Below the pieces are notes generated by a model, which had not been told where the DNA came from, ran no database searches, and saw nothing but the letters and a program-made list of their open reading frames with translations. 64,000 nucleotides of DNA. It comes from Deinococcus hopiensis KR-140 (GTDB lineage: Bacteria; Deinococcota; Deinococci; Deinococcales; Deinococcaceae). The translations under genes and the position numbers were made by a program. Location of the stretch: positions 15,998 to 79,997 of the forward strand of contig CALPYF020000013.1 of NCBI GenBank assembly GCA_943327755.2. Reading direction: 5' to 3'. This document shows positions 9,412 to 63,589 of this stretch, piece by piece; within the stretch, counting starts at the first letter, position 1, and every line of letters starts with the position of its first letter.

Positions 9412-9702
9412 ATGTCGAAAGTTCTCGCCAGCACTCAACTGCCCGACGGCACCACCCTCTCGTTCGACGCGGGCTTCGATCCGCCTCTCAACATCCACTT
9501 CCTGGACGTGTACCGGGAGGGGGAAGAGGACCCGGTGTTCGAGTCCCTCTTCCACCACCCGGGCGGCCGCTTCTCGTACTCCATCGCGGACCTCACGGCG
9601 GACGTGACCCGCCTCGCCGGTCGCCCCCTACCGGAGCTGACGGCGGCCATCATCGCGCTCGGTCCGGTGCCGAATGAGGTCCGCGACCTCGGCCGCCTCT
9701 AA
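9412..9702 (+). CDS. hypothetical protein (96 aa), hairpin-led
   Basis: ATG 10 nt after a hairpin; high GC3 frame; the next hairpin starts right after the stop. Confidence 0.7.
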   Translation: MSKVLASTQLPDGTTLSFDAGFDPPLNIHFLDVYREGEEDPVFESLFHHPGGRFSYSIADLTADVTRLAGRPLPELTAAIIALGPVPNEVRDLGRL

Positions 9703-9739
9703 CAGTCCTGGCCCGCGCACCGCGGGCCACGCGGCTTGC

Positions 9740-9877
9740 ATGAACCGACGCCTGAACCTCCGCGCGATCACCCTCACCGTCATCGTCACCAGCTGGGCAG
9801 GTGGCTTCGCCTTCCTGTCTCTCACCGTGTCCTCGACCATCCAGGCGAGCACCCCCGCATGGTCCGGTACCCCATGA
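9740..9877 (+). CDS. small putative membrane peptide (45 aa), hairpin-led
   Basis: MNRRLNLRAITLTVIVTSWAGGFAFLSLTVSS; ATGA overlap with the next ORF. Confidence 0.55.
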   Translation: MNRRLNLRAITLTVIVTSWAGGFAFLSLTVSSTIQASTPAWSGTP

Positions 9878-10068
9878 GTCCCCGCGAGCATGAGCGGCTC
9901 GCCCGCTCCCTCCTACAGGCGGCCCTGGATCACCAGCGCACGGCGCTCGCCTGCCCGGACGACTACCGGGCGGGCCTCGCCGCTCGCACCCTGGCCCAGG
10001 ACGCCTTGCATCACGCCCAGCTCGCCGAGCCCCGGGTGACTCCGGTGGGCGTGATCATCCGTACCTGA
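9874..10068 (+). CDS. small helical hypothetical protein (64 aa)
   Basis: MSPREHERLARSLLQAALDHQ...; translationally coupled by an ATGA overlap. Confidence 0.55.
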   Translation: MSPREHERLARSLLQAALDHQRTALACPDDYRAGLAARTLAQDALHHAQLAEPRVTPVGVIIRT

Positions 10069-10145: not shown

Positions 10146-10757
10146 ATGCAAGGCACCCTGACCGGCGTCGTTCTGAATGCCACGACCACCGACACGCAGA
10201 CCACCGTGAAGCTCGCCGGGATCACCGACAACGGGCACCGGGGCGTCACCTGGATTCACACGGTGACCTTCACCGGCCCCCGCAAACTGGCCACCCTGCC
10301 CGCTGAGGGCAGCGTCGCGCGCGTCACCTGCATGGCCACCCAACAGGTCTTCCAGGGCCGCGACGGGCAGAAGGCCAGTGCCGTGAGCTTGCTCGGCGTG
10401 ACCCTCACCCCCCACGCCGGGCCGATCACGCGCAAGGGGTCCACGCCCTTCCTCCTGCAGGCCGTGAACGAGTTCCGCTTCGCCGCGTTCCTCACCCGCG
10501 ACCCTGTGCGTAAACCCATCGGCGTCACTGAAGCGCGCGTGGGCGTGCGCGACCGGAAGGGGCACACGCACTACTTCAACTGCGAAGCCTGGCGCGCCCT
10601 CGCCCCCACCCTGGGCGCCCGACGCGCCGCCGCGGAACTCACCCTCACCTGCATCCTCCGCCGCGATCGGGTGGACACGGCGGCCGGCGCGCGTGCGTTC
10701 GACGTGATGGAAGTCATCGCCCTGAACGCCCAGGGGGTCGCCAATGCCGCAGACTGA
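10146..10757 (+). CDS. ssb: single-stranded DNA-binding protein-like, two OB folds (203 aa)
   Basis: Second half AVNEFRFAAFLTRDP...HYFNCEAWRALA matches the SSB OB-fold pattern; first half is a second beta-rich OB-like unit. No acidic C-terminal tail. Hairpin-led. Confidence 0.65.
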   Translation: MQGTLTGVVLNATTTDTQTTVKLAGITDNGHRGVTWIHTVTFTGPRKLATLPAEGSVARVTCMATQQVFQGRDGQKASAVSLLGVTLTPHAGPITRKGSTPFLLQAVNEFRFAAFLTRDPVRKPIGVTEARVGVRDRKGHTHYFNCEAWRALAPTLGARRAAAELTLTCILRRDRVDTAAGARAFDVMEVIALNAQGVANAAD

Positions 10758-11690: not shown

Positions 11691-12155
11691 ATGCTCATCA
11701 CCGTCGGCCGCCTCGGCGATTCCCACGACACTGGACACGCGGAGTACGTCGGACGAGGCCGGGGCAGCGTCCTCGGCAATCCCCTGCCCGTCATCGGACG
11801 GGGCCGCTGGACGGGCGAGGCCGCCGCGTGGACAAGTCACCTGATCCACTCGGCGCACCTCACGGGCACCGAACGCGAGCAGGCACAGCGGGCGCTGCAC
11901 CGCCTCGGCTTCGAGCAGGGAGAGGCAGCCGCGCTGTACCTGCACGTCCTGCGGGAGCAGTGCCGGACGGACACCCCACAACGCCGTGCCGTGCTGCGAC
12001 TCGCCGCCCTCGCCACGCAGGGCCCCGTGCACCTCCAGTGCTGGTGCACCCCGAAGCCGTGTCACGCGGAGCACATCCGCTCGGCCATCCTCGGCTACGC
12101 GCAGACGTTGGTCGAGAGGCGCGCGACCGCCGCACGGGCTACCGTGCTCGGCTGA
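11691..12155 (+). CDS. DUF4326 domain protein (154 aa)
   Basis: YVGRG..S..GNP N-terminal motif and L.CWC.P.PCH C-terminal motif. Hairpin-led. Confidence 0.8.
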   Translation: MLITVGRLGDSHDTGHAEYVGRGRGSVLGNPLPVIGRGRWTGEAAAWTSHLIHSAHLTGTEREQAQRALHRLGFEQGEAAALYLHVLREQCRTDTPQRRAVLRLAALATQGPVHLQCWCTPKPCHAEHIRSAILGYAQTLVERRATAARATVLG

Positions 12156-14605: not shown

Positions 14606-15427
14606 ATGCCGACCGATGCCCCCCCACCCCTGCTCAACGTGACCGTGCCCACGCCCTTCAGTACCGCCGTGCCCCTCGACGACCTCACCGAGGACACGCA
14701 CGGCGCCAGCAACCACCTCAAGGGCGCGCTGCGCTGCACCGGGCAACTCCAACCCATCGTGCTGGAATCCCTGCCCAGCGGCGAGTACCGCATCCGGGAT
14801 GGGAATCGCCGCGTCGCGGCCGCCCGGTCGCTCGGCTGGACGCACGTGCAGGCGGACGTGTACGCCGGACTGACCGAAGCGCAGTGGGCCCTGGTGGTCG
14901 CCGGAGTGCACAACCGCAGTGCCAACCCCGTGGAGGAAGCCCGCCTGTACGGCACGCTCACCCAGACGCTCACCGAGGCGGGCATCGCCGCGAACACCGG
15001 CGTTCCCGTGCAAGTCATCCGCGCCCGCCTGTCCCTGCTCAGCCTGCCGGGCGACGTCCTGGACCTGATCGGGACGCGCACCCTGAGCCTGAGTGTCGCC
15101 GAGCGCGCCGCGAAACTCCGGGGCGTGCACGCCGAGCGGGCCGTGCGGGAGATCCGGGAGGCGGAACAGGCGGGCAAGCCGTTCACGGCTGCGCAGCTGA
15201 AGGTGGTCACCGTGGCCCGCGCCAGCAGCCTCGGGGCGCGCCTCATGGCCGCGGCGCCGCCCCCACCCACGCTGCTGCCCCCAGAGACGATCCTCGCCGA
15301 GGAAGTCCGGGCGCTCTGCGAACGGCGGGGCGTGAGCGTGCAGGCCCTGACGCAGGTCCTCACCGGGTCGGTGCCGCCCGTGACCCCCGTGCAGGCGGCC
15401 CACGTCCACCGCGCCGTGGTGCACTGA
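14606..15427 (+). CDS. ParB/RepB/Spo0J-family protein (273 aa), hairpin-led
   Basis: GQLQPIVL...YRIRDGNRRVAAA ParB N-terminal motif, NPVEEARLY, and an HTH AGIAANTGVPVQVIRARLSLL. Confidence 0.85.
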   Translation: MPTDAPPPLLNVTVPTPFSTAVPLDDLTEDTHGASNHLKGALRCTGQLQPIVLESLPSGEYRIRDGNRRVAAARSLGWTHVQADVYAGLTEAQWALVVAGVHNRSANPVEEARLYGTLTQTLTEAGIAANTGVPVQVIRARLSLLSLPGDVLDLIGTRTLSLSVAERAAKLRGVHAERAVREIREAEQAGKPFTAAQLKVVTVARASSLGARLMAAAPPPPTLLPPETILAEEVRALCERRGVSVQALTQVLTGSVPPVTPVQAAHVHRAVVH

Positions 15428-15714: not shown

Positions 15715-15820
15715 GATCGCTGCATGCATACCACGCAGCCCGTGACACCGAAGCAAGACCGACGCCAATAGACGGCAGATGAGTTCACCTCGCGGTCAGT
15801 TGTGCGCTAGCGTGCCCGTC

Positions 15821-18800
15821 ATGACCGAGCGTGTCCACCAGCTCCAGCGGAAGACGGCCGGGGCAGCTCGCCCCGCACGGCCGGACCTCCAGCGCCCGGC
15901 TGAGGAGCTGGCGCACCACCACCGCGCCCTGCAGCGGCAGACAGCCCGCCCGGTCACGGCTCAGCGTCAGGCCGTCGCCCCGGTCCTGCGTGCGGCTGCC
16001 CTGGAGGGGCAGGAGACGGCCCGCCTGACGACCGCGCGCACCCAGCTGCAGCGGCAGGTGGACGCCCTGGCTCCCCTGCCAGCTGCTCCGCGCAGCGCGC
16101 CCACCGCCGTGCCCGCGGCGCCCACGACCCCGTCGGATTGGGTGACCGTGATGCGCGCCCGCGCCGAGGGTGCCGAAGGTCAGCGCCTCGATGCCCGCGC
16201 GTACGGGGAGTTCCAGGCGCTGCAGCGGCAGGTGGCGCACACCCTGGCGCAGGGCTTCCGGCAGGACCGCGGCGACCCCGCCGCCCGGTACGCCACGTAC
16301 GGCACGCACCTCGCGACCCTGCAACGTCACCCGGTGAGTGCCCCCGTCTCTCGGGTCGTCCTGGGCCTGGTGCCCTCCAGTGAGCGGCTTCCCCTGCAAC
16401 GGGCGGCGGACGAGGCCCTGCAGCGTCTGCAGGCCCAGGAACAGGCCGCCCTGAACGCAGAGACCTGCCACTCGCTGCAGCGGCAACTGGCTGAACTCGA
16501 CGCAGAGGCCACGCAGCCCGTGTTGCAGCGCATCCAGGCGCGGCGTGGCGGGGGCGCACCACTGCCGGAGGCCGTGCAGCGGCACCTGGAGCAGGGCCTC
16601 AACCATGACCTCAGTCGTGTGCGCATCCACGACGACGCGGAAGCCGACAAGTTGGCCAAAGGCGTGAATGCCATTGCGTTTACGACAGGCACGGACATCT
16701 TCTTCCAGGCGGGGCGGTTCGAGCCGAACACCCAGAGCGGCTTGGAACTCCTCGCGCATGAGGTCACGCACACGGTGCAGCAGAGTCAGGGCCGCGTGGG
16801 CACCGGCATCGACCCGGACGCTGGCCTGGAAGCGGAGGCGCGCGCCATGGGCGCACGACTGGCCCAGAAGACCACCCTGCCGACGCGGGCCACCCAACCC
16901 CAGCCTCACTCGACCGTTACACCAACCACGACCTTCCAGCGGCGTCCCGCCGCGGGAACGGCGCCCGTCCGCACGCCGACTCCGCAAGCGGTCGGTCGGG
17001 TCGGCATCATCACCCACTCCGACGGAGCCAACCTCCGCACGCAACCGGACGCGCAGGCCAGCAAGGTCCTGCCACAGCCTCTTCCGGTCGGCACGAAAGT
17101 CGGCGTGATCAGTCAGGCGGCGAACGGCTGGAGTCGGGTGTCCCTCCCGTCCGGGCAGAGCGGGTGGCTTCAGACCCTGCGCGTCACCACGAACCTGCCC
17201 GATCCCGGCTCGCGCCTGATCCGGGTAGCACAGCAGACGACCGCAATTGGCGTGGCGGAACGCTACTACCGCGCCCTCGTGCGGCCCGGTCAGGACCTCC
17301 GGTATTACGTGAATGTGCTCGAGCAGGTGAACCGCCAGCGGGGGACAGGCGCGTTCCAGGCGGGTCAGACCCTCCAGGCGGGCAGCCTGCTGTGGGTTCC
17401 CGGCGCCGCGTATGCGCAGACCCTGGCGGGGACTGTTCAATCCGGCTCGATCACGGGCGGAGCCCTGGCACGGGTCAATGCCGCCATGGGGCAGAGTCCC
17501 GGCGCGAACATCATGCGTTCCGTGCTGGAGTCGCCGCAGTACGTGCGGGAAGTGCTGGGGGACGCCTGGGTGACGGTGAAGGAGCACTGGCCCGTGATCC
17601 TGGCGACGACCACGGCGCTGATCGGCGCGGAGTTGCTCGTGGGGGTGCTCGCGGCCGCGCCGGAACCCACCACCGTCACGAAATTCCTGGCGGTGGGCCT
17701 GCAGGGCATCATCACAGCCGTCGCCGGGGTGGGGGCCGTCACGGCCGGAGCGGCCGCTCTCGAAGCGGGCGCGCGGTGGCTGAAGACGGCGTGGAGTTCC
17801 CGTGGGAACGCCACGCAGATCAAGGTGGCGGCCAAGGCGTTCCTGACGATGATCGGGCAGACCGTAATGGCGGTCGCCAGTGCGGCTGGGGTGCGCGCCA
17901 GTGCCGGGCGTACAACGGCCCTGCGCGGCCTGTACACGCGGGAGCAACTGGTCGCCCAGATCGGCAACAAGGCCACGTACGAGGCGCTGATGGACGTCCT
18001 GGCGGCGCGGGGCGTCAAGACTAACAACGCGCAACTGCTGGGGAATCTCCTGAAGAAGGTTCCGGATCCCCTCGAGCTCAAGGGCTTCCTGCGCAAGGTG
18101 GACAAGCCCAGCGAGTTCCTGGCCACGCTGAACAAGTACCCACTGAACCGCGTGCGTCAGGTCCTGGCTGAGATCGACAGCCAGAGCATTCCGCCGCAGT
18201 TCGCGAGTCGACTGCTGACCCTCAATCTCGAAAATCCCGTCCCGACCAGGCCGCTGAACGCGGCGCGCGTCGCCTTACTGAACCAGAAAGTGCCCGGCGG
18301 AGCGGCCGACAAGACCTTCGGGGGCAAATCCGTGGTGCTGCGCGAAGAGCTGACGCCCACCCAGGCGGCGCAGGACAAGGCGGCAGGCGCGCGGTACCAG
18401 GCTCTGCTCGACGACATTCTGGAACGCAGCCCCTACGTCTACCGCTACACCACACGGTTCGCCCTGAACAAGGTGCGTGAGAACGGCTGGGACATCCGCG
18501 AAGCCTTCATGACCAACGTCCTCGTGAAGAATCCCAACGACGTGAGCCTGGGGGCACAACTCAAGCCCGCCTGGTACCAGTTCAGCGACGGGAACCCTGA
18601 TGTGGTCGTCAAGATCCCCAGGCGCCTGCTGAAAGCCTCCACCGTCCCACGCCCCTCCGGGAATACGGCGGAAGTGGCGGGCTGGGAATTCACGACGTCC
18701 GCCTATCCGGAAGCGGGGAAAGGCGGGCTGCTGCAGTTCATGGGCACGCTGGACAACGGTGTCCTGGAAAGTGGCATCAAGACTGGCGAGATCGAAATCA

Positions 18801-18844
18801 TAGAGCTGTCGGGCGGCACGTCCCGGTTGCCGCGGCCCCGATAA
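15821..18844 (+). CDS. DUF4157 (eCIS-core) protein with SH3b, LysM-like, hydrophobic and variable C-terminal (putative toxin) regions (1007 aa)
   Basis: DUF4157 motif DLSRVRIHDD...AFTTGTDIFF...LLAHEVTHTVQQ, SH3b ANLRTQP...GWSRV...SGW, and a TM region. TAGCGT at -13..-8 of ATG 15821. Confidence 0.8.
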   Translation: MTERVHQLQRKTAGAARPARPDLQRPAEELAHHHRALQRQTARPVTAQRQAVAPVLRAAALEGQETARLTTARTQLQRQVDALAPLPAAPRSAPTAVPAAPTTPSDWVTVMRARAEGAEGQRLDARAYGEFQALQRQVAHTLAQGFRQDRGDPAARYATYGTHLATLQRHPVSAPVSRVVLGLVPSSERLPLQRAADEALQRLQAQEQAALNAETCHSLQRQLAELDAEATQPVLQRIQARRGGGAPLPEAVQRHLEQGLNHDLSRVRIHDDAEADKLAKGVNAIAFTTGTDIFFQAGRFEPNTQSGLELLAHEVTHTVQQSQGRVGTGIDPDAGLEAEARAMGARLAQKTTLPTRATQPQPHSTVTPTTTFQRRPAAGTAPVRTPTPQAVGRVGIITHSDGANLRTQPDAQASKVLPQPLPVGTKVGVISQAANGWSRVSLPSGQSGWLQTLRVTTNLPDPGSRLIRVAQQTTAIGVAERYYRALVRPGQDLRYYVNVLEQVNRQRGTGAFQAGQTLQAGSLLWVPGAAYAQTLAGTVQSGSITGGALARVNAAMGQSPGANIMRSVLESPQYVREVLGDAWVTVKEHWPVILATTTALIGAELLVGVLAAAPEPTTVTKFLAVGLQGIITAVAGVGAVTAGAAALEAGARWLKTAWSSRGNATQIKVAAKAFLTMIGQTVMAVASAAGVRASAGRTTALRGLYTREQLVAQIGNKATYEALMDVLAARGVKTNNAQLLGNLLKKVPDPLELKGFLRKVDKPSEFLATLNKYPLNRVRQVLAEIDSQSIPPQFASRLLTLNLENPVPTRPLNAARVALLNQKVPGGAADKTFGGKSVVLREELTPTQAAQDKAAGARYQALLDDILERSPYVYRYTTRFALNKVRENGWDIREAFMTNVLVKNPNDVSLGAQLKPAWYQFSDGNPDVVVKIPRRLLKASTVPRPSGNTAEVAGWEFTTSAYPEAGKGGLLQFMGTLDNGVLESGIKTGEIEIIELSGGTSRLPRPR

Positions 18845-18878
18845 TGACTCGCACCACACGCGCCGCATCAGGAGAGCC

Positions 18879-19193
18879 ATGAACAGCGAACGACAATTGG
18901 ACAATCAGGGCAACGCCATCGGCCTCTTTCGATCGGCCTTCCAAACTGCGGTTGGACACTTGCAGGAGACGCACCAGAACCTGCAAGACGTGTCTCAGGA
19001 GGAGCTGCTGGCCGCGACTGCCGCGCAGAAAGCAAGTCGCGCCTGGTACTTCGAGAACGATGGCGTGACCCAGCACGATCTGGACCTGTTCGATGAGGTG
19101 ATGCTGGATTACTGGGCGAGCCTGCTCGACTGCCTGAAGGACCCGAGGGCCGACACGACCGTGGACGCCTGCCTCAATCTGCTCTTCCGCTGA
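18879..19193 (+). CDS. putative cognate immunity protein (104 aa)
   Basis: Small acidic ORF with CAGGAGAG RBS, 35 nt after the toxin-like gene. Confidence 0.55.
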   Translation: MNSERQLDNQGNAIGLFRSAFQTAVGHLQETHQNLQDVSQEELLAATAAQKASRAWYFENDGVTQHDLDLFDEVMLDYWASLLDCLKDPRADTTVDACLNLLFR

Positions 19194-21325: not shown

Positions 21326-22846
21326 ATGACCATCAGCACCAGCAGCGTGTTCTCCTTCAAGACGGCGAAGTTCCCTGGACTCGGGAAGGGCGGCCGGGTG
21401 CAGATCCCACAGCATCTGCACAGCCAACTCGACACGTCCAACCGGATGCGCATCATCCCGTGGGCTGCCGCTGAAGCAGTCGCCCAGGTCCTGCTGGGCC
21501 GCGTGGAGGCTGAACGCACTCCCAAGTCCCTCACCGTCCAGACCATCGACAAGGACGGGCAGCCCGTCCTCATGGCCTCCCACCCCGCCCAGGCGACGTG
21601 GGTGAATGCCGGGCAGACCGTGCGCCCGTACATCCTCCTGATCGCCGAAGCCCAGCTCGCAGCCAAGCACACCGAACTCGCCGAACGCTGGGGCGAACTC
21701 CTGCACACCATCGACCGGCACGCCGTCACCCTCCCCGCCACTGAGGATCAACTGGCCACGCTCAGCTACACCGCTGAATTCAAGGATGATCTCCAGCGCG
21801 TCCTGGACACCCTGTACTACACCGGGAAGCTCTACGCGGACACCTGCTCCTGGATCACCGGGCCCCTCTCCGCCCCCGCCGCGTGGACGCATTCCCCGGT
21901 CCTCCTCGGGCAGTCCCCCCGCCAGCCCGGCGAGCCCGGTGCGGATCTCAGCGAGGAAGGCCGCCTCACCCGGCGGGCCGCGTACGGCATCCGCGCCCTG
22001 CTCGTCGGCCCCACCGGCTGCGGGAAGACCGAACTCGGCAAGCGCGTCGCCCTGTCCACCGGTTCGACGATCGTCTCCCTCAAGGGCCGCCCCGGTCTGG
22101 AGGACCGCGACATGATTGGGTTCATCTCCCCCACCCTGCAGGGCGCCCGCTGGGTGGACGGCCCGCTCGCCCGGGCCATGCGCCTCGCGCAGCAGGGCAC
22201 ACGCACCACCCTCCTGATCGACGAGCTGCTCCGCCTGGACGCGTACCACCGCAACGCCCTGATCGGCCTGCTCGACGACGTCAGCGCCACGGAACTCAAA
22301 GCCACGCTGGGCGTCGACGTGCCCGACGGGCGGTACTACACCCTGGATCTCCCCGGCGCCGGTGAAGTCCTGTACGCCCCGACGCGCCTACTCAGCGTCC
22401 TGTGCACCACGAACGCCGGCAGCTCGTACACGCAGAGCGGCGAGCTCGACCCCGCCCTCCTGCGGCGCTTCCAGCGTGTCATGTTCGTCTCGTACCCTGC
22501 CGAGGCGGTCATCATGCCGGTCTACGCGAAGGCGGCCACACCTGGGACGGCGCGCGTCGCGTACGCCCTGGAAGTGGCCACGCGCAGCATGACGGTCGAC
22601 CAGGGGCAGCTGCTCGCCCGGCCCATGAACACCGGCATCACCCTGAACTTCCTCGCGGAAGTGCAGGACCTCGTCCAGGCGGGCCTCTCCGAGACCAACG
22701 CCTTGCGCGAGGCGCTGCTCGTCACCGTCACGCCGTTCTGCTGCGAGTTGACCGACGAGGGCCTGCCCGACCCGGCGGCCGTGAATGCCCTGAAGGCCCG
22801 CCTGGAAGAGCAACTCCGCAAGGGCCTGCTTCACAAGGCCGCGTGA
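21326..22846 (+). CDS. MoxR-like AAA+ ATPase with an N-terminal extension (506 aa), hairpin-led
   Basis: Walker A GPTGCGKT, WVDGPL, Walker B LIDE, sensor TTN, and LDPALLRRF Arg finger. Confidence 0.85.
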   Translation: MTISTSSVFSFKTAKFPGLGKGGRVQIPQHLHSQLDTSNRMRIIPWAAAEAVAQVLLGRVEAERTPKSLTVQTIDKDGQPVLMASHPAQATWVNAGQTVRPYILLIAEAQLAAKHTELAERWGELLHTIDRHAVTLPATEDQLATLSYTAEFKDDLQRVLDTLYYTGKLYADTCSWITGPLSAPAAWTHSPVLLGQSPRQPGEPGADLSEEGRLTRRAAYGIRALLVGPTGCGKTELGKRVALSTGSTIVSLKGRPGLEDRDMIGFISPTLQGARWVDGPLARAMRLAQQGTRTTLLIDELLRLDAYHRNALIGLLDDVSATELKATLGVDVPDGRYYTLDLPGAGEVLYAPTRLLSVLCTTNAGSSYTQSGELDPALLRRFQRVMFVSYPAEAVIMPVYAKAATPGTARVAYALEVATRSMTVDQGQLLARPMNTGITLNFLAEVQDLVQAGLSETNALREALLVTVTPFCCELTDEGLPDPAAVNALKARLEEQLRKGLLHKAA

Positions 22847-22922: not shown

Positions 22923-24422
22923 ATGACCCAGCAGAAATGGTGGCAGACCCCCCGCATTCAGAAGTGGGCGTGGGACGCCTGGCGGTACTACTCCTGGCGG
23001 CCCACCTACCGCCTCACCCTCACCCCCAGCGAACCGTCCGCCTACGTCGACATGGTCAATCACGTCGTCGTGTGCAACCCCGAGTACCCGTACCCGCCCC
23101 TGCACCTCGCCCGCCACGTGCGTGGCCTACCGGCGGACCTGCACGAGTTCCAGCAGACCTACCTCGAATCCCTCATCGCGCACGAGGCCGGGCACACGCA
23201 CCACTCCGGTCTACTCCCCGCGGGGCTGCACGGCCAGCTCGTGAACATGCTCGAGGACGAACGCATGGAGCGCCTCACCGCCGTGGACTTCCCGCACCTC
23301 ACGGCGCTGTTCCAACTGGCAGCGGACGTGGACGCCGCGCACGCCATCGAACAGGGTGGCCTGGGTGGAGACGTCCTGCGTGGTTGCCTCCTGCACCGCT
23401 TCACTGCCCACCATCCCACGTGGTCGTTCACGCCCGATCAAGCGGACGCAGGCCTGTGGCCCGAGGTGAAGGCGATCGTGGAGGAGGCCTGGGTCGCCCC
23501 CACGTACGACGCGGTCGTCGACGCCGCCCGGCGCATCCTGCAGATCCTGAATCTCCCCGAGCAGGCGCCCGAACGCGAGGAGTTCCGGTTCTTCCTCGAT
23601 GGAGGTGGGCAGGCCCTGCTGCCGCAGACACCCGGTCCATCCCTCCAGGGGAGTGCCGCTGGAGACGGGCCCGGCCAGTTGCACGGTGCGGAGCCCCGCC
23701 CGATCAAACCGGAGGTGGATCCGCAGGTGACGCCCCGCGCCGAGTACCTCCAGGCCCAGGTGCATGGTGAGGCCCGCCGCCTCGCCGCAGCCCTGTGCCC
23801 CCCGGCCCTGCCCGACCGGACGCAACCCAGCCGCGACCGCGGCCGCTACCGGTACGACCGGCACGAGACAGGTAGCGAGCGCCCCTTCGACCTGAAGGTC
23901 GGCTCGAAGCGCCCCGGTCCAGCACACCTGCGGCTCGCGATCGACGTGAGCAGCAGCATGAACCACCAGGACCGCGTGGCGCACGCCCGGCGCATGGCGT
24001 TCATCCTGACGCTGGCCGCGCAGCAGAGCGGCACGCCCATCCTGGCCACCGCGTTCGCCGATGATGCGCAGACGCTCATTCAGACGGGCACGCTGCCCAC
24101 CGCCGCCCTGAATGCCGTGGCGGATCTGCAGGCGTACGGCAACACCCGCCTCGCCCCCACACTCCAGGGCCTGTGGTCCCCCGTCCTGCCCGGCCGGAGT
24201 ATCACCGTGATCCTCAGCGACGGCGCCCTCATGGAGCGTGATTACACCCAGTGCGCCCAGCTGCGCGCGCGGCATGATGGCCTCGTCGTGCCGATCCTGC
24301 TCGACGTGCAGCCGGACGTGGCGGCCGCGTACGAGCGCGCGTTCGGCCCCTGCGTGCTGATGAGCGATCCGGCCCAGCTCACCACACACGTCCTGACATT
24401 CCTGCGCACCCTGCTCCGCTGA
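22923..24422 (+). CDS. zincin-like (HExxH) plus vWA domain protein, MoxR partner (499 aa), hairpin-led
   Basis: AHEAGH...NMLEDERME in the N-terminal part; MIDAS motif DVSSSM, T (GNT) and LSDG in the C-terminal part. Confidence 0.85.
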   Translation: MTQQKWWQTPRIQKWAWDAWRYYSWRPTYRLTLTPSEPSAYVDMVNHVVVCNPEYPYPPLHLARHVRGLPADLHEFQQTYLESLIAHEAGHTHHSGLLPAGLHGQLVNMLEDERMERLTAVDFPHLTALFQLAADVDAAHAIEQGGLGGDVLRGCLLHRFTAHHPTWSFTPDQADAGLWPEVKAIVEEAWVAPTYDAVVDAARRILQILNLPEQAPEREEFRFFLDGGGQALLPQTPGPSLQGSAAGDGPGQLHGAEPRPIKPEVDPQVTPRAEYLQAQVHGEARRLAAALCPPALPDRTQPSRDRGRYRYDRHETGSERPFDLKVGSKRPGPAHLRLAIDVSSSMNHQDRVAHARRMAFILTLAAQQSGTPILATAFADDAQTLIQTGTLPTAALNAVADLQAYGNTRLAPTLQGLWSPVLPGRSITVILSDGALMERDYTQCAQLRARHDGLVVPILLDVQPDVAAAYERAFGPCVLMSDPAQLTTHVLTFLRTLLR

Positions 24423-25623: not shown

Positions 25624-25639
25624 TTGCTCTTCATTGAGC

Positions 25640-26056: not shown

Positions 26057-26089
26057 GTGTGGCCTCCTGGCGGAGGCCAGGTCAGGGTC

Positions 26090-26876: not shown

Positions 26877-26981
26877 TCCAGCACGTGTAACTCAAGGAAG
26901 TGGCCGCAGATGCGGCCACCTTTCCCTTCGAGAACGTCAGAGATGGCCTGTCCGCGATGCGGCCCGGCCCCGCCAGCGCGC

Positions 26982-45814: not shown

Positions 45815-45852
45815 CGTAGCCCTGGCCCCCTGCCCGGGGGCCACGGACGCGT

Positions 45853-46230: not shown

Positions 46231-46265
46231 AGCGCTGGCCCCCAGCTGGGGGCCACCCCGCACGC

Positions 46266-48464: not shown

Positions 48465-48508
48465 CCAGGGCTGGCCGGGGGGGTTGCCCCCCGGCCCACC
48501 TGCTCTTG

Positions 48509-51973: not shown

Positions 51974-52709
51974 CAGTCACCCCCACGTCAGGCACCGTGC
52001 ACCCTATGCCGCACCAGATCGCGTACACCGACGCCAGCCTCGCCGTTCAGGACGTGTACGCCCTGGCGGCCGTCGTGAACGGCGTGACCATCACGACCAC
52101 CGCGCGGGCGCACACCACCCAGCAGGCTGAACTGCAGGCCGCACGCCTCGCGGTCCAGCACGCCGATCCCGGCCCCCTGCACCTGCATGTGGACTGCATT
52201 GCCACCGCGCACGTCCTGACGGGACTCGCGCGGTCCAAGTCGCCCCTGACCGAACCTGCGCAGGAGCTCCTCCAGCTCGCCGCGGAACGGGGCGTCGCCC
52301 TGCACGTGCAGTGGATTCCCAGAGGGGAGAACGCCGCCCACCACCCGGCGCATCACACCGCCGGGCACATGCGTACCCACCGCCGCGCCCGCCGGGTCCA
52401 CCTCCCCCCACTCCCCCCCAGACCCCCGGTCTGGTCGTCCGCCTGCGCCACCACCCGGACGGCACATCCGCCTGCGGCGGTGGACTGCGCGCGGTCGCCC
52501 ACGGGCCCCTGGCCGCCCTGCGCATCCTGATCGACCTCGCGGGCCGCGCCCCGCCTGGCGTCCGCGTCCGGGTCCGCGGCGTGCCGCCCTATGCCGCGCA
52601 CCTCTGGACCCACCCCGAGCACGCGCCGGACGACCTGCTCGCCTCCCTCAGTGCAGCCCGCTGCACCCTCTCCCTGCGCGGCAGCCGACTGCACTTGATG
52701 ACCCCGTGA
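51970..52709 (+). pseudogene. RNase H-like protein, apparently frameshifted in a C7 run (52413-52419)
   Basis: AYTDAS, TTQQAELQA, HVDC and QWIPRGEN are RNase HI-like motifs. Coding signal continues in the -1 frame (PQTPGLVVRLRHH...) to 52709. Confidence 0.6.
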
Positions 52710-56220: not shown

Positions 56221-57495
56221 CTACTCCCAGATTGAGCGGAGCGTGTCCACCCTCGCCTGCCAGGCCAGCACTTGCAGGTGGGCATTGGCCTGATCCTGAC
56301 CACCCATCGCCGTCCAGGGCACCGAGATGTAGGTGGGGAGCCCTGGCAGGCTGAGCGAATGTCCCGCGGCAGGGTCAGTGAGATGCTGTACGGGCAACTT
56401 GGCCTGTTCACGCCTGAACTGGGCCACCTGGCTTAACTCCATGGCAGGCCAGACCTGATCCTCACCTCCACTGACCAGCAGAACCGGACCGGCAATCCTC
56501 TCGACCGGGATAGTCGCTACCGCGATGTCCTCCCTAGATGCCCGCGCCACTGCTTCCCGGTGAATGGGCGTCATGTTATAGGGGCCTGATCCACCGAAGA
56601 ACGCCGACCAGTCCGTCTGGTAGGGAATATAGGGGAGGGGATTGCCGCCCCATGCCCACGAGGACATCGGCTGACCCGCCGGAAACTGCCTGGTCCGGTC
56701 AATCCCCTCAAAGATCAGCCCGCTAGAAGCGATGGCCGCCACGGCACCCACGTCTGAAGGGAACGTAGACCCGATGAGCAACGCGGCTTCCGCTCCCTTG
56801 GACGCGCCGGTCACGCTGACACGGCGCCCGGCCACTTCGGGCCGGGCGCGCAGCCAACAGAGGGCGTCATGGAAGTATTCCAGGGGAATATTGATCAGAT
56901 CGGCAGGCAGCGTGGAGTGTGGAACGCCGAAATAGGCCAGATTGAGGACTATCAAGCCCTCAGATGCCAGGAGGGCGGCCACGGTGTCATACAGGCCCCC
57001 TTCTGAACCCCCCAGAAAGAGACACGCTCCACGCAGGTCTCGCCCGGAGGCCGGTGCCAAGAGTTGCCCGTACAGCCCGTTGTCACGCACATCCTCCACC
57101 TGAAGGTCAGGCCAGCGGGAGAGACGCCGCGTGGTCGCTCGGGCCTGTTCCTGATCACCCACCGTGAGAGAAAGCGTCAGGTCGTACCCACCTGGCGGCA
57201 GTTCGAAGAACGCTGGAAAGAGGTCAGGGCGCGGTCGCAAGCTCCAGATCAGACCGGAAGGGTTGATCCCCTGGTAGCTGCCGTCCAGGGCAGGATCGCG
57301 GGCCAGATTGAGCTGCCCGTCACCCCTCGTTCTGAAGCTCGCTGAGGACCGCCACACCTCACCGTGCAGATCGGTCGTTTCGGCCGTGACAGTGACTCCG
57401 GTAAGCGGAGGCAGATCACTGGCTTGAAGGTTGAATGGGGCGGACAGGAGCGCGTCGGGTGTGACGTTCAGCAGCATAGGGAACCTCTCCGGCAC
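56221..57495 (-). CDS. acyl-CoA thioesterase / BAAT family hydrolase (424 aa)
   Basis: N-terminal bile-acid hydrolase-type domain (G.Y.G..P.GL.WS), GGSEGG, nucleophile GASKGAE, D..WP and AGH. Confidence 0.9.
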   Translation of the reverse strand: MPERFPMLLNVTPDALLSAPFNLQASDLPPLTGVTVTAETTDLHGEVWRSSASFRTRGDGQLNLARDPALDGSYQGINPSGLIWSLRPRPDLFPAFFELPPGGYDLTLSLTVGDQEQARATTRRLSRWPDLQVEDVRDNGLYGQLLAPASGRDLRGACLFLGGSEGGLYDTVAALLASEGLIVLNLAYFGVPHSTLPADLINIPLEYFHDALCWLRARPEVAGRRVSVTGASKGAEAALLIGSTFPSDVGAVAAIASSGLIFEGIDRTRQFPAGQPMSSWAWGGNPLPYIPYQTDWSAFFGGSGPYNMTPIHREAVARASREDIAVATIPVERIAGPVLLVSGGEDQVWPAMELSQVAQFRREQAKLPVQHLTDPAAGHSLSLPGLPTYISVPWTAMGGQDQANAHLQVLAWQARVDTLRSIWE

Positions 57496-57522
57496 GGCAC
57501 GGCCGGGTGGTGGAAGGTGAGT

Positions 57523-58296
57523 TCAGTTCAGCAGGAAGCCGAGTTCGGTGCCCTCTGGGGTGTCCAGGGTGTAGGCAGAACCTGGGTGGTGGCCGTCCTG
57601 ACTGGCCGCGAGGTAGATGGCGCCATACGTGGCGCTGAACGTGCGCCAGTCGTCCCGGTGGAGCGCGCAGACCACGGGAGTTTCCGGGAGGGTCATGAAG
57701 CGGACGCGGCCCTGTCCGACCAGTGGCTCAGCCACAGGGAGGCACACCTCGGTCTGGAGAGGACCGCTGAAGTAGTCCTGCCCGTGGTAAAGGCCGAAGT
57801 CCATGCCCTGCACCTGAACCCCAGCGGTCTGGGCGTGCTGGCGTAACGTCCAGACGCTCTGGCGGTAGTAGGTGTCAAAGCTCTCCGCTTCGGCATTCAT
57901 GGTGAGACTCAGGACATGCTGCGCCTCCCAGCAGCGGTACCGGACGCTCACGCTGGGTAGCACCCGCCGTCCATTCAGTAGTTCCCCTACCTCCAGCAGC
58001 AGTTCACGTTTTCTCTGAAACTGTTCGATGAGGCGTCGCTCGTGCCGTTCGAGAATCGCCGTGGCCTGCTCCGGGGAACCGCTGAGAAGGTCGTTTAATT
58101 CATTCAGGGGAAGGTCCAGGGCGCGCAGATGGGCGAACCTCTGGCCGAGCGGAATCTGTTCCGGGGTGTAGTACCGGTACCCGTTGTCCTGATCAATCTG
58201 GGCAGGCGAGAGGATTCCGCTGTCGGCATAGAACCGGAGTGCGGAGACACTGAGGCCGACCAGGGACGCAAACTGTCCGATGGAGAGCAGTTTCAT
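57523..58296 (-). CDS. MerR-family regulator with a GyrI-like effector domain (257 aa)
   Basis: LSIGQFASLVGLSVSALRFY...NGYRYY and a C-terminal effector domain. AGGAGG RBS. Confidence 0.92.
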   Translation of the reverse strand: MKLLSIGQFASLVGLSVSALRFYADSGILSPAQIDQDNGYRYYTPEQIPLGQRFAHLRALDLPLNELNDLLSGSPEQATAILERHERRLIEQFQRKRELLLEVGELLNGRRVLPSVSVRYRCWEAQHVLSLTMNAEAESFDTYYRQSVWTLRQHAQTAGVQVQGMDFGLYHGQDYFSGPLQTEVCLPVAEPLVGQGRVRFMTLPETPVVCALHRDDWRTFSATYGAIYLAASQDGHHPGSAYTLDTPEGTELGFLLN

Positions 58297-59998: not shown

Positions 59999-60160
59999 AA
60001 CCAGAGCGTCCCGTGCGTAGGGGTGACGAGTGCAAAAACATGCGGTCCCAGTGGACCCGGTGGTCAGGGGTGGCCTGCCCGGGGGGCAGGCCAGGGCAGA
60101 GGGGTTCACGCGTGTCGCACGCCGATCACGCCCGTTTCGTCCTCATTCCAGGAGCACCCC

Positions 60161-60670
60161 ATGAACGAGATTCCGCACCGCAGCAGCCTCGTGCTGGTCG
60201 ACGCCATCGGCACCCGCATCACCGTGTACGCGAACACTCCGCAGGAACTCCGCGCCCTGCAACGCGAGTACGGACGGCGAGGGTACCGCCCCGAAGGGGA
60301 GATCCCGTGCGGCGGCCTCCAATTGCCGTACGCGCAGCACGACACGTTCGACTGGTCGCTGATCGGCGCGACCCCGTGGACGAGCCCGGATGGAGAGCGG
60401 GGCGTGATTCATGACGGCAGCTTTTACAAGCTCAGGGAGCTCGAAGCCGTGGACTCCAGGAAGATGAAGTTACCTCAGGCCCTGAAGTACAGCCGTGGGG
60501 CCCGGGAGACCGACCCGGAGCACCTCGTGGAGGAATCGAACGGGGAGTTCAAGTACCGGACGCTGATCATGTTTCGGGGTGGCGGGAAGGCCATGCCGGA
60601 ATTCAGCCTGCCGGGCGGGCAGCGGCAGCGGCACGCGGTGGGGCCCGCGCAGGAGAACGCCGCCGACTGA
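60161..60670 (+). CDS. ddrB: DdrB ssDNA-binding/annealing protein homologue (169 aa)
   Basis: GEIP.GG.Q.P...FDWSLIGA..W.SP.GE..VIH.G..Y..RELEAVDSRK.KLP.A.KYSRGA is nearly the D. radiodurans DdrB core as recalled. CAGGAG RBS. Confidence 0.92.
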   Translation: MNEIPHRSSLVLVDAIGTRITVYANTPQELRALQREYGRRGYRPEGEIPCGGLQLPYAQHDTFDWSLIGATPWTSPDGERGVIHDGSFYKLRELEAVDSRKMKLPQALKYSRGARETDPEHLVEESNGEFKYRTLIMFRGGGKAMPEFSLPGGQRQRHAVGPAQENAAD

Positions 60671-60805
60671 CCCGCGAGTGGGGGAGAGGACCGTGCCTCT
60701 TCCCCTCCCGCATGCCTTCGCTTCAGGGGTGGCCCCACCGATGCGGTGGGGCCAGGCCGCGCTGCAACCCCACGCGCTCTGTCGTGGCGTTCAGGAGACC
60801 CCATC

Positions 60806-63589
60806 ATGCCTAAAACTGCCCCACGTGCCCGCCCGATCCCCTTCACCCCTCGACTGACGCCACCGGACGCCCGGTTTGCAGTGCCGACCCTGAGCGCGGA
60901 CGCGCAACTTGCGTACGACCGTCTCTCCCAGGATGGACGGCTCTCCCAGGTGGCCCTGACCAGACTCGTCGGGGAAGCGCGGGCAGGAGAAGTGCTGGCG
61001 GAACTCACGGCGGCGTGGCTGGCTGTGGAGGTGCCGGGGGGCCTGGAGACGCGCACGGGCCGGGCAGGGTACATCGCGCCCGTGGCGTGGGTGCCGGCAG
61101 CGGGTCTGCTGGAGGTGGAGGCGGCCGCGCGGCTGCTCTCTGGGCGCAGTGGGCTGCTGGGGATGTTTGCGCGGGCGCTGGACATGGATTCGGCAGGGGC
61201 GCTGGGGGTGATGCGGGCCCTGGTGATGCTGGGCCTGGCGCAGGGCGGTCCGGTGGGGGCGACGTTCGCATTCCGGGTGCATGCTCAGGATCAGGTGCAC
61301 GTGCAGGAGGTCCAGGCTTGCCCGCCATCTGGCGGGCATGTTCGCCTGGAGGCGAGTGTGGTGGAGGCGCCGGTGAACGGTGAGGGTGATCGCCATAGCG
61401 TGGTCACCCCTACGCCGCATACCGTGAAGGCAGGAGGCGAGCGTATGACCCGGTCTATTCCAGCGCAGTTCACGGTCGAGCAGCGGCAGTTCATGACGGC
61501 CGTCACGACGTCGAGACGACACCTGTTCCTGCGGGCGACCGCCGGGGCGGGGAAGACGACCACGTTGACGGAGGCGGCGTGGCACCTGGAGGAGCGTGGC
61601 GTGTACTTCGCGTACAACCGGCACGCCGTCTCGGACCTCCAGCCGCGCTTACCGGCCCGGGTGCGCGCCCTGACGCTGCACTCGCATGGATTCCGCCTCC
61701 TGCAGCAGCAGCTGGGCAGCCCCTTGCAGATCCTCGACGAGAAGGGCCGCCTGGTCGCGTCCACGGTGATCCCGGACCACACACAGCTCCATGCACCGGC
61801 TGCGCGGGCGTGGACGATCGCGCGCGAGGAAGGCCTGCATGTCCCGACGCCTGAGCAGGCGAAGTGGCTGGCGGACCGGGCGGAGTGGCCCGCGGCGCCC
61901 GACGAGCTGGTGGACTTGATCCCCGTGTTCCATCAGGTGGGCGCGGACCTGTGGTCGGACGCAGGTGCGGCGGACTTCACGGACCTGCTATGGCTGCCGG
62001 TGACGCTCGGGTACGGGGTTGGGAGCCTGTCCCTGGCACTCGTCGACGAGGCGCAGGACCTCACGCCGCTGCGGCAACGGTACGTGTTGCACCTGCTGGG
62101 CCTGCGTGGCGCGTCAGCGTCCCCTGGGCGGCTGATCTTCGTGGGGGACAGCGACCAGTCGATCTACACCTGGGCGGGGGCTGACCCCATGGCACTGTCC
62201 CGCCTCAAAGAGCGCGTGGACGCCTTGGAACTTCCGCTGAGCGTGTCGTTCCGCTGTCCGCGTGAGGTGGTGCGGTACGCGCGGGCGCACTCGAGCTTCA
62301 TCCGGCCAGCGCCGCGCGCGGAGCCGGGCATCGTCGAGCATGTCAGCGCAGAAACGGCCACGTACGCTCGCGGGGACGTGGTGCTGTGCCGCACGAACGC
62401 ACCGTTGATCCGTCTGGCGCTGGAGTTGATGAGTCGGAAACTCAGTGTGGCGGTGACCGGGCGGGATCTCGCGCAGCGCCTGCGGGACGGCGTGACGGAG
62501 GCGTTCCCACCGGACTTCGAGAACGACATGGTGACGGACCTTGTCCGGGCGTACCTGGAGCCAGTTGCTGCGCCACTGAAGGCGCGGGCGAGTACGGGTG
62601 ACCAGGGAGCCCGGCGGGCGCTGACGGAACTCCTGGACGTGGGGCGTTGCCTGCGGTACCTGGCGTGGGTGGTGTCGCGGCGCACGGGTGCGGGAACCCA
62701 GGCGGATGCGCTGACGCTCCTGGGGCAGCTGTGCCGGGAGGACGCGGAGGCGGACGTGCTGCTGGCGTCGGTGCACCGGGCCAAGGGCAAGGAGTGGCCG
62801 CGCGTGACCATCCTGTACCCCGAGCTGATGCCGCTGAGTCAGGGGGACGAGGCGGAGGAGCGAGCCGTGCAGTTCGTGGCGGTGACGCGCGCGCAGCGGG
62901 TGTTGCGGTTCGCATACGGGAAGGAGGCGTGGGCGGCGCAGCAGCTCGTGGTGCCGGGCGTCCTACCCGCTGTGGAAGTGGAGGAGGTCGCACCTGAACT
63001 GCCTGCCTGGGCCGAGGTGCTGGAAGGTGTTGCTCCGGTGCCCTCGCCCGTTCTGGCCGTGTCGGTGCCGCCGCCCAGCTCGGGGTGCCGGTCGATGCTG
63101 CCGGCGCTGCCGCAGGGGGGACCGCCGGTGGCGACTCTGACGGATCTCCGGGGGGCGTGGCCGCTGTTCGGTGGGGGCACGCCCATGCCGCTGGGTCTCG
63201 TACGCGAGCGGCTGGCGGCGCTCGCTGAGGAGGATCGGACCTTGCTGCGCACGTGGGCGGTCGACGGTCTGACGCTGCTGCAGGGCGTGGAGGCGCCGTA
63301 CGTGGCGGTGCACGAGGTGCACCTGGCGTTGTTCGAGCGGGCGGCGCGTCAGGCGCGACTGGCGATTCCGGCAATGTTCGGGACGGGCGTGCCGGTGTGT
63401 GTGTTTGAAGGGCCGCTGTTGCGCGTGCGCCTGGCGCGGAAGGTGCGGCTGAGCGGGCGGGTTCTGCGGGTGGCACTGGGGGACGTGGAATTGCGGTTCG
63501 ACCGGGCAAGTGGGGAACTGCTGGATGGGGCGGAACCACTCGCGCCGTTCATCCGGCCGGCGGAGTTGGGTCGTTTGCAGGCCAGCTGA
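60806..63589 (+). CDS. UvrD/Rep-family SF1 helicase with N- and C-terminal extensions (927 aa; strong internal start at 61445)
   Basis: ATAGAGKT, TLHSHG, DFTDLL, VDEAQD, VGDSDQSIY, SFRC, CRTNA, SVHRAKGKEW and FVAVTRA. Confidence 0.9.
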   Translation: MPKTAPRARPIPFTPRLTPPDARFAVPTLSADAQLAYDRLSQDGRLSQVALTRLVGEARAGEVLAELTAAWLAVEVPGGLETRTGRAGYIAPVAWVPAAGLLEVEAAARLLSGRSGLLGMFARALDMDSAGALGVMRALVMLGLAQGGPVGATFAFRVHAQDQVHVQEVQACPPSGGHVRLEASVVEAPVNGEGDRHSVVTPTPHTVKAGGERMTRSIPAQFTVEQRQFMTAVTTSRRHLFLRATAGAGKTTTLTEAAWHLEERGVYFAYNRHAVSDLQPRLPARVRALTLHSHGFRLLQQQLGSPLQILDEKGRLVASTVIPDHTQLHAPAARAWTIAREEGLHVPTPEQAKWLADRAEWPAAPDELVDLIPVFHQVGADLWSDAGAADFTDLLWLPVTLGYGVGSLSLALVDEAQDLTPLRQRYVLHLLGLRGASASPGRLIFVGDSDQSIYTWAGADPMALSRLKERVDALELPLSVSFRCPREVVRYARAHSSFIRPAPRAEPGIVEHVSAETATYARGDVVLCRTNAPLIRLALELMSRKLSVAVTGRDLAQRLRDGVTEAFPPDFENDMVTDLVRAYLEPVAAPLKARASTGDQGARRALTELLDVGRCLRYLAWVVSRRTGAGTQADALTLLGQLCREDAEADVLLASVHRAKGKEWPRVTILYPELMPLSQGDEAEERAVQFVAVTRAQRVLRFAYGKEAWAAQQLVVPGVLPAVEVEEVAPELPAWAEVLEGVAPVPSPVLAVSVPPPSSGCRSMLPALPQGGPPVATLTDLRGAWPLFGGGTPMPLGLVRERLAALAEEDRTLLRTWAVDGLTLLQGVEAPYVAVHEVHLALFERAARQARLAIPAMFGTGVPVCVFEGPLLRVRLARKVRLSGRVLRVALGDVELRFDRASGELLDGAEPLAPFIRPAELGRLQAS

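Follow-up and report, generated by a model that had tools for sequence, protein, structure and literature searches.

A hairpin-led, co-oriented gene tract beside the type IV secretion module of a Deinococcus plasmid family as a candidate establishment regulon

Leading regions, the parts of conjugative plasmids that are transferred first, have been described on the scale of the initial 30 open reading frames (ORFs); their genes are oriented so that the transferred strand serves as template, and they are enriched in genes for SSB, methyltransferases (MTases), anti-restriction proteins, and toxin-antitoxin systems (PMC11541004). Here we analyzed a window of 64,000 nucleotides from Deinococcus hopiensis KR-140 (bases 15998-79997 of contig C13), in which a 54-kb tract of co-oriented genes, 9412-63589, had been proposed from the letters alone to be a region of this kind. 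Coordinates are window positions unless C13 is named. The tract shares several features with the leading regions of F-like and IncI plasmids, namely a plasmid with a type IV secretion system (T4SS), uniform orientation, DNA secondary structure upstream of genes, genes for an SSB, an MTase and a homolog of the DarB type of anti-restriction protein, a small gene pair on the opposite strand, and many small ORFs of unknown function. Unlike leading regions, it comprises 53 ORFs over 54 kb and includes parAB and, here, rep. Also unlike them, no homologs of PsiB, ArdA, or ArdC were seen in the tract, and no Acr homolog was detected there.

Single-strand promoters of the Frpo/ssi type were reportedly described by Masai and Arai in 1997. 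Frpo elements are few, long, and imperfect stem-loops that rebuild -35 and -10 hexamers in the stem duplex, whereas the tract holds about 31 short hairpins, one per gene, at 11 nt from the ATG, and these do not rebuild such elements. The virion RNA polymerase of phage N4, a phage-borne single-subunit enzyme, uses hairpin promoters with stems of 5-7 bp and loops of 3 nt. The likeness to the tract lies in a short DNA hairpin at a fixed distance before the start, in the involvement of SSB, and in the presumed link to early genes of incoming DNA. Unlike N4, C13 carries no gene for a single-subunit polymerase, its large ORFs coding for toxin-like, DarB-like, and VirB6-like proteins. In the p576/pLS20 family, as in the tract, several establishment genes lie behind one repeated upstream signal, and their expression is thought to be transient after entry (PMC6294495, PMC8708921). 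The signal of the Bacillus plasmid p576 is a dual heptamer operator for the ribbon-helix-helix repressor Reg576 at sigma-A promoters (PMC6294495, PMC8708921). The tract instead has a covarying hairpin of variable length in which only the base is conserved, which argues for a structure rather than a linear operator.

Taken together, the tract can be read as a single-polarity establishment and maintenance regulon that lies directly downstream of the T4SS module and has a structure-based start signal, a reading to which we attach about an even chance. Of its parts, the anatomy of the tract, its family distribution, gene identities, and conserved boundaries are shown by the analysis. Conjugation in Deinococcus is essentially undescribed, and plasmids of this family are classed as non-mobilizable by standard typing yet carry a complete-looking T4SS and a coupling protein. 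The tract defines the conserved accessory backbone of a plasmid family, wired to one unusual structure-based start signal. If it is an establishment regulon, it would offer about 30 uncharacterized candidate genes for anti-defense or DNA protection, a new type of promoter suited to leaderless translation, and a clear place to seek a new relaxase and origin of transfer (oriT).

Gene orientation and the hairpin start signal

Contig C13 has 101,363 bp and a GC content of 67.6%, and the host genome (4.63 Mb, 70% GC) is complete by markers. Raw ORF lists in DNA of 70% GC consist mostly of antisense artefacts. Genes were called with a codon log-odds model trained on the host genome, and the calls were curated with Pfam, NCBIfam, PADLOC, PDB sequence matches, two AlphaFold models, the D. 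grandis annotation, and codon-position GC. After curation, 53 of the 58 genes in 9412-63589 were on the plus strand and 5 on the minus strand (about 91% of coding bases plus), bearing out the claim that nearly all genes between 9.4 and 63.6 kb point the same way. Seven minus-strand calls were rejected as antisense artefacts (25631-26167, 26937-27725, 29949-31037, 37197-37727, 39891-41855, 48371-49300, and 51988-52694). The genuine minus-strand genes are listed here with their state in two related plasmids. These are D. grandis pDEGR-2, the nearest public relative (circular, 373,915 bp, 92-98% identical over much of the tract), and the circular 170,845-bp plasmid G074:C3, whose alignment to C13 crosses the contig ends.

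19542-20846, minus strand: RepA replication initiator of the RPA family (Pfam RPA, 5e-15), without hairpin
56221-58296, minus strand: BAAT acyl-CoA thioesterase and MerR regulator, cargo absent from G074:C3
59022-60109, minus strand: small membrane protein and a ~240-aa protein, called a toxin pair in the original prediction, kept in pDEGR-2

In 54-kb windows over the tract, the co-orientation score obtained with a crude caller was 0.75-0.79, at the 95th-98th percentile of the genome, and the plasmid-like contigs C6 and C7 reach values as high. The co-orientation of the tract is notable yet not unique by itself. Replication is an unlikely cause of it, the internal RepA being absent from G074:C3, where orientation and order are unchanged; sliding windows of codon scores were unreliable for strand calls across that plasmid in such composition. 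The reading of the tract as a prophage or phage-plasmid was dropped, with no capsid or terminase among the annotated proteins.

Unlike co-orientation alone, the hairpin signal of the tract is exceptional in the genome.

9383-58478, plus strand: about 31 hairpins, each separated by 10-11 nt from an ATG that has no Shine-Dalgarno

The signal runs from TGGCC through a perfect, GC-rich stem, 8-12 bp in total, and a loop of 2-6 nt to GGCCA, followed by 10 nt and the ATG. Between 9383 and 60754, 28 copies were found with the strict and 33 with the relaxed pattern, all in plus orientation. Genome-wide, the motif occurs 29 times on the plus strand of C13 versus 13 times on both strands of the other 4.5 Mb, an enrichment of roughly 200-fold. 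Only the five outer base pairs are fixed, and the inner pairs covary: stem position 7 is C:G in 17, A:T in 7, and G:C in 4 copies, and position 9 varies likewise (C:G, A:T, G:C). Since the length of the hairpin ranges from 19 to 27 nt, its 5' arm would stand at varying distances from the start on a linear duplex, which favors a folded structure over an operator of two half-sites. As single-stranded DNA, the hairpins have folding energies of -12 to -19 kcal/mol (z -2.2 to -4.6). Position -1 before the ATG is C in 24 of 28 hairpin-led starts. The hairpin-led genes have neither a Shine-Dalgarno (SD) sequence nor a canonical -10 element upstream of the ATG, no TTGACA- or TATAAT-like elements were present in the hairpins, and Rfam gave no known RNA family in the window.

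RepA, parAB, the DUF4157 toxin, and the cargo genes have no hairpin, just as had been claimed. Two further hairpins, 60071-60093 and 60730-60754, have no ATG at 11 nt and lie 50-65 nt upstream of the SD-led genes for DdrB and a UvrD-like helicase, a placement more in keeping with a role in transcription than with one in translation.

The co-orientation might also be unrelated to transfer, the tract being ordinary backbone expressed constitutively in long operons and the hairpins serving as intercistronic terminators, attenuators, or processing and stabilizing stem-loops. We consider this very improbable. Such operons would suit the half or so of the hairpins that begin 3-25 nt past an upstream stop codon, but the distance from stem to ATG is 11 nt in 27 of 31 cases while that from the preceding stop to the hairpin varies from 3 to 562 nt, so the hairpin is tied to the downstream start and not to the end of the upstream gene. 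What precedes the first hairpin (9383) is not a gene but 1.1 kb of non-coding DNA, and the pyrimidine at -1, as at transcription starts, together with the missing SD and -10 elements, is also at odds with the operon explanation. A similar strand bias on C6 and C7, the presence of parAB and rep inside the tract, and the fact that cargo insertions, as in pDEGR-2 and D. gobiensis, would leave orientation intact without selection are in its favor; however, the signal is confined to the plasmid family and absent from chromosomal operons.

In the establishment reading, the hairpin would be a promoter whose activity depends on structure, a cruciform if the DNA is supercoiled or a stem-loop if it is single-stranded, and leaderless mRNAs would begin with the A of the ATG. 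Plasmid factors would steer host RNA polymerase to the hairpins; candidates for these factors are two proteins of the T4SS module, one sigma-like (669 aa) and one with a GreA domain (483 aa). The promoter function is our inference, and so are the part played by the sigma-like protein and the time at which the genes are expressed. In D. deserti, 60% of transcription starts coincide with the start codon or lie close to it (PMC4007540). Leaderless mRNAs being the norm in Deinococcus (PMC4007540), an RNA starting at the hairpin-linked ATG would be translatable.

The hairpin-led ATGs at 9740, 26090, 40732, 54040, and 55857 open very short ORFs (14-62 aa), which end at or just before a longer ORF in another frame. 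These could reflect translational coupling, programmed frameshifting, or leader peptides.

DNA-handling and anti-restriction genes

The genes of the tract with functions in DNA metabolism, partition, or anti-restriction, and the MoxR/VWA pair, are as follows.

10146-10757, plus strand: divergent SSB of 203 aa with two OB folds (Thermus/Deinococcus type), hairpin-led
14606-15427, plus strand: ParB-like protein (ParB_N and HTH_ParB) without cognate ParA, hairpin-led
21326-22846, plus strand: MoxR-type AAA+ ATPase, hairpin-led
22923-24422, plus strand: VWA protein with an HExxH motif (HEAGH), hairpin-led
24469-25581, plus strand: DnaG-type primase catalytic core (Toprim) of 370 aa, hairpin-led, assigned by fold match
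27814-29723, plus strand: parA-parB partition pair, without hairpin
29946-35164, plus strand: DarB-like N6-MTase and SNF2 helicase, hairpin-led
48509-49339, plus strand: minimal TGT-fold protein, weakly DpdA-like, overlapping the helicase gene
49306-51408, plus strand: DEAD-box/HhH helicase, overlapped by the TGT-fold gene
60161-60670, plus strand: DdrB, a single-stranded DNA-binding and annealing protein (Pfam DdrB, 3.9e-40), SD-led
60806-63589, plus strand: UvrD/Rep/PcrA-like SF1 helicase, the last conserved backbone gene, SD-led

The SSB, DdrB, ParB-like protein, and DarB-like MTase-helicase named in the original prediction were all present, as judged from PDB, Pfam, and phage-protein matches. 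Helicases had been named as well, and there are three in the tract, including those at 49306-51408 and 60806-63589. TGT folds had been given in the plural, of which the one at 48509-49339 stands and a second candidate, 26910-27716, was not confirmed. The DnaG-type primase, the MoxR/VWA pair, and a PRTRC ubiquitin-like cluster can be added to this inventory.

The SSB matched the Thermus SSB structures 2cwa (E 4.2e-5) and 2fxq (E 9.6e-5) in the PDB, and the Pfam SSB model gave no match to it. The primase was likewise missed by Pfam, and by the PDB sequence search. Its AlphaFold2 model (pLDDT 83) matched the core of E. coli DnaG (1eqn) with a Foldseek E of 3.8e-8, and all 25 Foldseek matches at <=1e-3 were primases. 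The motifs EGELNA and YADADESG, which provide the conserved Glu and the DxD of such enzymes, were invariant across 16 homologs; a zinc-binding domain was not identified in the protein.

The DarB-like protein resembles DarB of phage P1 in its architecture of an N6-MTase and an SNF2-type helicase. Its best phage matches, in Thermus phage, are annotated "DarB-like anti-restriction protein" (E 2e-45, 30% identity, 66% of the query), and it also matched a protein of the P1-like phage D6 annotated "defense against restriction". Unlike P1 DarB, which is delivered with the DNA through capsid packaging, the homolog of the tract is plasmid-borne and frameshifted in the assembly. The frameshift lies near 31190 relative to the intact 1739-aa gene of D. 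grandis; the gene is either a pseudogene or misassembled at this point.

The N-terminal 230 aa of the UvrD-like helicase have no family assignment, and neither an HUH nor a Tyr motif was found in them. The third-position GC skew of this gene is +0.37, compared with about -0.2 in the rest of the tract and a chromosomal mean of -0.13, a hint that the gene differs in origin or in its mode of expression; the coupling protein gene, the VirB11-like gene, and ddrB deviate in third-position skew too.

In the establishment reading, the SSB, primase, DdrB, UvrD-like helicase, DarB-type protein, TGT/DpdA-like protein with its helicase, ParB-like protein, MoxR/VWA pair, and PRTRC proteins would handle the incoming DNA and protect it in the new host.

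T4SS module, conserved boundaries and the place of oriT

Left of the tract, a co-oriented T4SS module extends from C13 2636 to window position 7118, with all genes on the plus strand except two, one of them VirB10-like. It begins with genes for the 669-aa protein, the 483-aa GreA-domain protein, and lipoprotein and secreted proteins, followed by genes for VirB10-like (minus strand), VirB2-like, VirB3-like, VirB4, a coiled-coil protein, a VirB6-like protein of ~1000 aa, the type IV coupling protein (T4CP), and a VirB11-like protein. The same order is kept in the D. gobiensis plasmid NC_017791.1 and in D. aquatilis. The part inside the window comprises three of these genes.

1-2307, plus strand: VirB6-like, 3' part of a gene for a ~1000-aa multi-pass membrane protein with a Pro/Ala/Thr-rich tail, by six-frame reading
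2546-5146, plus strand: T4CP of the VirD4/TraG family (Pfam T4SS-DNA_transf 2e-25, TraG-D_C, TrwB_AAD_bind)
6096-7118, plus strand: VirB11-like AAA ATPase (Pfam Spore_III_AA, 3.8e-10), the last gene of the T4SS module

The syntenic VirB6-like gene of D. gobiensis is annotated at 198564-201026; a 536-aa minus-strand ORF within 1-2307 was rejected as an antisense artefact. Close homologs of the T4CP occur in 8 other Deinococcus species, and the VirB11-like ATPase is 75% identical in D. gobiensis and D. aquatilis. The VirB4-type ATPase and the coupling protein expected of a self-transmissible plasmid are both present, and MOB-suite types the D. gobiensis plasmid as MPF_T. A second, distant T4CP-like gene (26% identity) was seen at about 89.5-90.7 kb of C7, a lower-GC and strongly co-oriented contig. 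At C13 1-1650 there is a gene for a collagen-like Gly-Pro-Gln repeat protein, while the same place in pDEGR-2 and D. gobiensis holds genes for a primase-polymerase and a full-length SSB.

The first two genes of the module (C13 2636-6153, window -13361 to -9844) are both kept in D. gobiensis and D. aquatilis. The 669-aa protein is found in Deinococcus only, and for its AlphaFold model (pLDDT 72) the only coherent set of Foldseek matches consisted of initiation-complex sigma factors (sigma-S of E. coli, and sigma-A of M. tuberculosis and M. smegmatis). The 483-aa protein has a GreA N-terminal domain, and for its D. gobiensis orthologue the PGAP annotation reads "transcription elongation factor". 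The two are possibly a plasmid-specific transcription pair, and as RNA-polymerase-interacting candidates that head the module they would fit a plasmid-specific transcription program for the hairpin units.

The boundaries of the conserved element are sharp on the right. G074:C3 matches C13 1809-79586 (window position 63589) at 94-97% identity without three insertions, at 15.7-21.3 kb (toxin and RepA), 38.9-39.9 kb (hydrolase), and 56.1-58.4 kb (BAAT and MerR). Similarity to both G074:C3 and pDEGR-2 ends at 63589, the stop codon of the helicase gene; beyond it, C13 is mosaic DNA common to unrelated Deinococcus plasmids, and G074:C3 has nothing in common with this flank.

63590-64000, no strand: start of the non-conserved right flank, leading to RepA2, TnpB, and ParAB2 on the minus strand

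pDEGR-2 has the tract in two blocks ~150 kb apart, and in the D. gobiensis plasmid its pieces extend over ~257 kb, with orientation kept in both. About 10 of 111 Deinococcus species show enrichment of the hairpin motif, and reversed-pattern controls were near zero. The motif co-occurs with the close type of T4CP (>=56% identical) and is co-oriented on every contig that carries both. By sequence comparison, the tract is the backbone that a Deinococcus-specific T4SS plasmid family conserves outside its T4SS module.

Genome-wide six-frame searches with PF03432, PF08751, PF03389, PF07514, PF02486, PF13814, and PF01076 gave no match over the cut-off, and none on C13. Sub-threshold matches were limited to PF08751 on C36 and PF13814 on C27, C5, and C35; PF03432 and PF08751, searched over 111 Deinococcus genomes, were absent from the sibling genomes, T4SS contigs included, except for a single weak PF03432 match below threshold on a small, separate contig of G062. 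The NCBIfam and PDB sequence searches with the unknown proteins of the T4SS module returned nothing, and a regular-expression scan for HUH motifs hit none of the real reading frames of C13. The relaxase, if there is one, is evidently of a family that these models do not recognize. Among the 111 Deinococcus species, T4CP homologs occur in 25, and MOBP and MOBF relaxases are almost absent; T4SS elements of the genus may use an undescribed DNA-processing enzyme.

The original prediction had placed both oriT and relaxase beyond 64 kb and had suggested a search for relaxase and nic site on the replicon. Neither was found, with the seven families searched over the genome and the gap described below compared in three lineages. 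The 21 kb of C13 to the right of the window carry genes for RepA2, TnpB, ParAB2, an MBL/Excalibur nuclease, a lipase, XPB and Bax1, PAP2, and ABC-F, and no relaxase. With the T4SS genes on the left, this non-conserved flank of a second rep/par set and cargo on the right, and similarity ending at 63589, an oriT to the right of the window is unlikely from the sequence comparison. The conserved element consists of the T4SS module and the tract and ends at the helicase stop codon, so a cis-acting oriT should lie inside it, and a position within the conserved backbone is more likely than one to the right of the window.

These results bear on the original prediction in its strict form, in which the minus strand is transferred from an oriT located at the right end of the tract or farther right. 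The tract would then be a giant leading region whose hairpins would be minimal single-strand promoters or primase start signals, and RNAs would be initiated at the ATG while the incoming template strand is still single-stranded. Gene content and orientation fit the label of a leading-region-like tract, and the uniform orientation is that of leading-region gene families (PMC11541004); the implied position is unsupported, since to the right of 63589 neither a relaxase nor conserved non-coding DNA was found among the mosaic cargo and the second replicon module. The presence of SSB, the DnaG-type primase, DdrB, and the UvrD-like helicase in the regulon would suit entry as a single strand, and DdrB and the helicase at the right end would enter first; but a tract of 53 ORFs over 54 kb, spread over ~257 kb in D. 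gobiensis, is large for such a region. In single-stranded DNA of the minus strand the hairpins form stable folds, and a host prone to leaderless mRNAs could directly translate an RNA that starts from the A of the ATG (PMC4007540), with Frpo as precedent for a single RNA that is both message and primer (PMC11541004). However, their stems of 8-12 bp without -35 and -10 elements are unlike Frpo. An oriT upstream of the T4SS genes on the circle would send 21 to 99 kb of cargo ahead of the tract, and GC skew carries no strand signal. We regard this strict form as unlikely. GC and AT skew were discarded as a read-out of the transferred strand, because third-position skew follows the coding strand; the minus-strand RepA gene has the same sign, and the chromosomal baseline is -0.13.

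Two sites inside the conserved element are candidates for oriT. The first is the 1.1-kb non-coding gap 8268-9412 between the T4SS module and the tract, which has repeats and an AT-richer segment and adjoins a small divergent gene.

7780-8268, minus strand: small, divergent DNA-binding (HTH-like) gene, a gene call without family match
8686-8973, no strand: six direct repeats with 43-44 bp spacing, then an AT-richer stretch with GTTACAT/TTTACA to 9290

D. aquatilis and D. gobiensis have arrays of unrelated sequence in the corresponding position, of 4 x 21 bp and 4 x 33 bp respectively, with GC falling to 39-52%, and the gap of D. aquatilis also holds an equivalent divergent gene. By its position, the stretch 8686-9290 is a candidate for an oriT, a centromere, or an operator array. 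The second site is a conserved 260-bp segment upstream of the T4SS module (C13 1809-2067) with a long inverted repeat. In the F paradigm the tra genes point away from oriT and enter last, so the second site would imply transfer of the minus strand, in line with the original prediction, with 21 to 99 kb of cargo ahead of the tract, whereas an oriT at the first site would let the tract enter first, as coding strand.

With oriT in the gap (8.3-9.4 kb), the plus strand would enter 5' to 3' and the T4SS genes last, and the tract would be the physical leading region with its genes pointing away from oriT. Expression would follow complementary-strand synthesis, from cruciform promoters, and could be a zygotic induction before a plasmid repressor accumulates. 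We give this arrangement a low probability. The gap lies within the conserved backbone, and its oriT-like architecture recurs at the same syntenic place in three diverged lineages, but no block conserved across the lineages suggests a nic site, and the repeats could equally be iterons, operators, or the centromere of the orphan ParB-like protein. The repressor-controlled, transient expression of establishment genes in p576 is a precedent (PMC6294495), and the plasmid primase and SSB would speed complementary-strand synthesis; such an orientation breaks the rule of leading-region families (PMC11541004), and no relaxase is known for the system.

In another variant, the plasmid family would have an undescribed relaxase and transfer the minus strand, on which the hairpins would be minimal signals for starting RNA from a single strand; the leaderless RNAs would prime the complementary strand as well. 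The RNA would be started from the ATG by host RNA polymerase with the sigma-like factor, or by the DnaG-type primase with SSB, and nearly the whole backbone would be expressed zygotically from single-stranded DNA. As a whole this variant seems rather improbable, and the idea of single-strand promoters as such has at best a slender chance, if perhaps a slightly better one. If true, it would widen the concept of the leading region from a few Frpo-driven genes to a whole backbone.

Several points weigh against the establishment regulon itself. Its hairpins could act as terminators, as operators, or as RNA elements within polycistronic transcripts. Neither a relaxase nor a nic site was found, which leaves self-transmissibility putative, and MOB-suite types the relatives as non-mobilizable. 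The gap regions of the three lineages have no block of >=10 nt in common, which leaves the gap a candidate by position and architecture only. As for the sigma role, the matches of the 669-aa protein to sigma chains combine Foldseek probabilities of 0.99-1.0 with an E of only ~0.1, the hhalign alignment of its residues 37-93 to RpoD regions 2.1-2.2 is not significant (E 0.41), and the Pfam Sigma70_r2 model does not match it.

PRTRC cluster and cargo genes

The remaining features of the tract are a ubiquitin-like cluster, a toxin-like gene, and cargo or small genes.

11691-12155, plus strand: DUF4326 protein (Pfam, 4.1e-9), hairpin-led
15812-19193, plus strand: DUF4157/eCIS-core polymorphic-toxin-like protein (Pfam eCIS_core, 1.5e-28) and a small downstream ORF, without hairpin
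35944-47003, plus strand: PRTRC ubiquitin-like cluster with PRTRC_E, PRTRC_C (Ubl), a ThiF E1, and three Prok-E2_D proteins
38978-39856, plus strand: alpha/beta-hydrolase, cargo inserted in the PRTRC cluster

No function has been assigned to the PRTRC (ParB-related, ThiF-related) cassette (NCBIfam TIGR03734-03742) in any system. The cluster of the tract resembles it in having PRTRC_E and PRTRC_C above the cut-off, a ThiF E1, and Prok-E2_D, and in its location on a mobile element; the C/E/E1/E2 set is present, with 69 bits for TIGR03738 (cut-off 46) and 41 bits for TIGR03741 (cut-off 38). Unlike the cassette, it has grown to include three E2-like proteins and three large paralogs of 335-384 aa, and a PRTRC-type ParB was not found within it: the ParB-like gene 14606-15427 lies 20 kb away and its product scores 21 bits (cut-off 279).

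The 5.6-kb segment 15719-21290, with the DUF4157 toxin, its partner ORF, and RepA, is missing from G074:C3. In pDEGR-2 its toxin part occurs in duplicate, at the borders of both blocks, suggesting a hot spot of recombination or cointegration.

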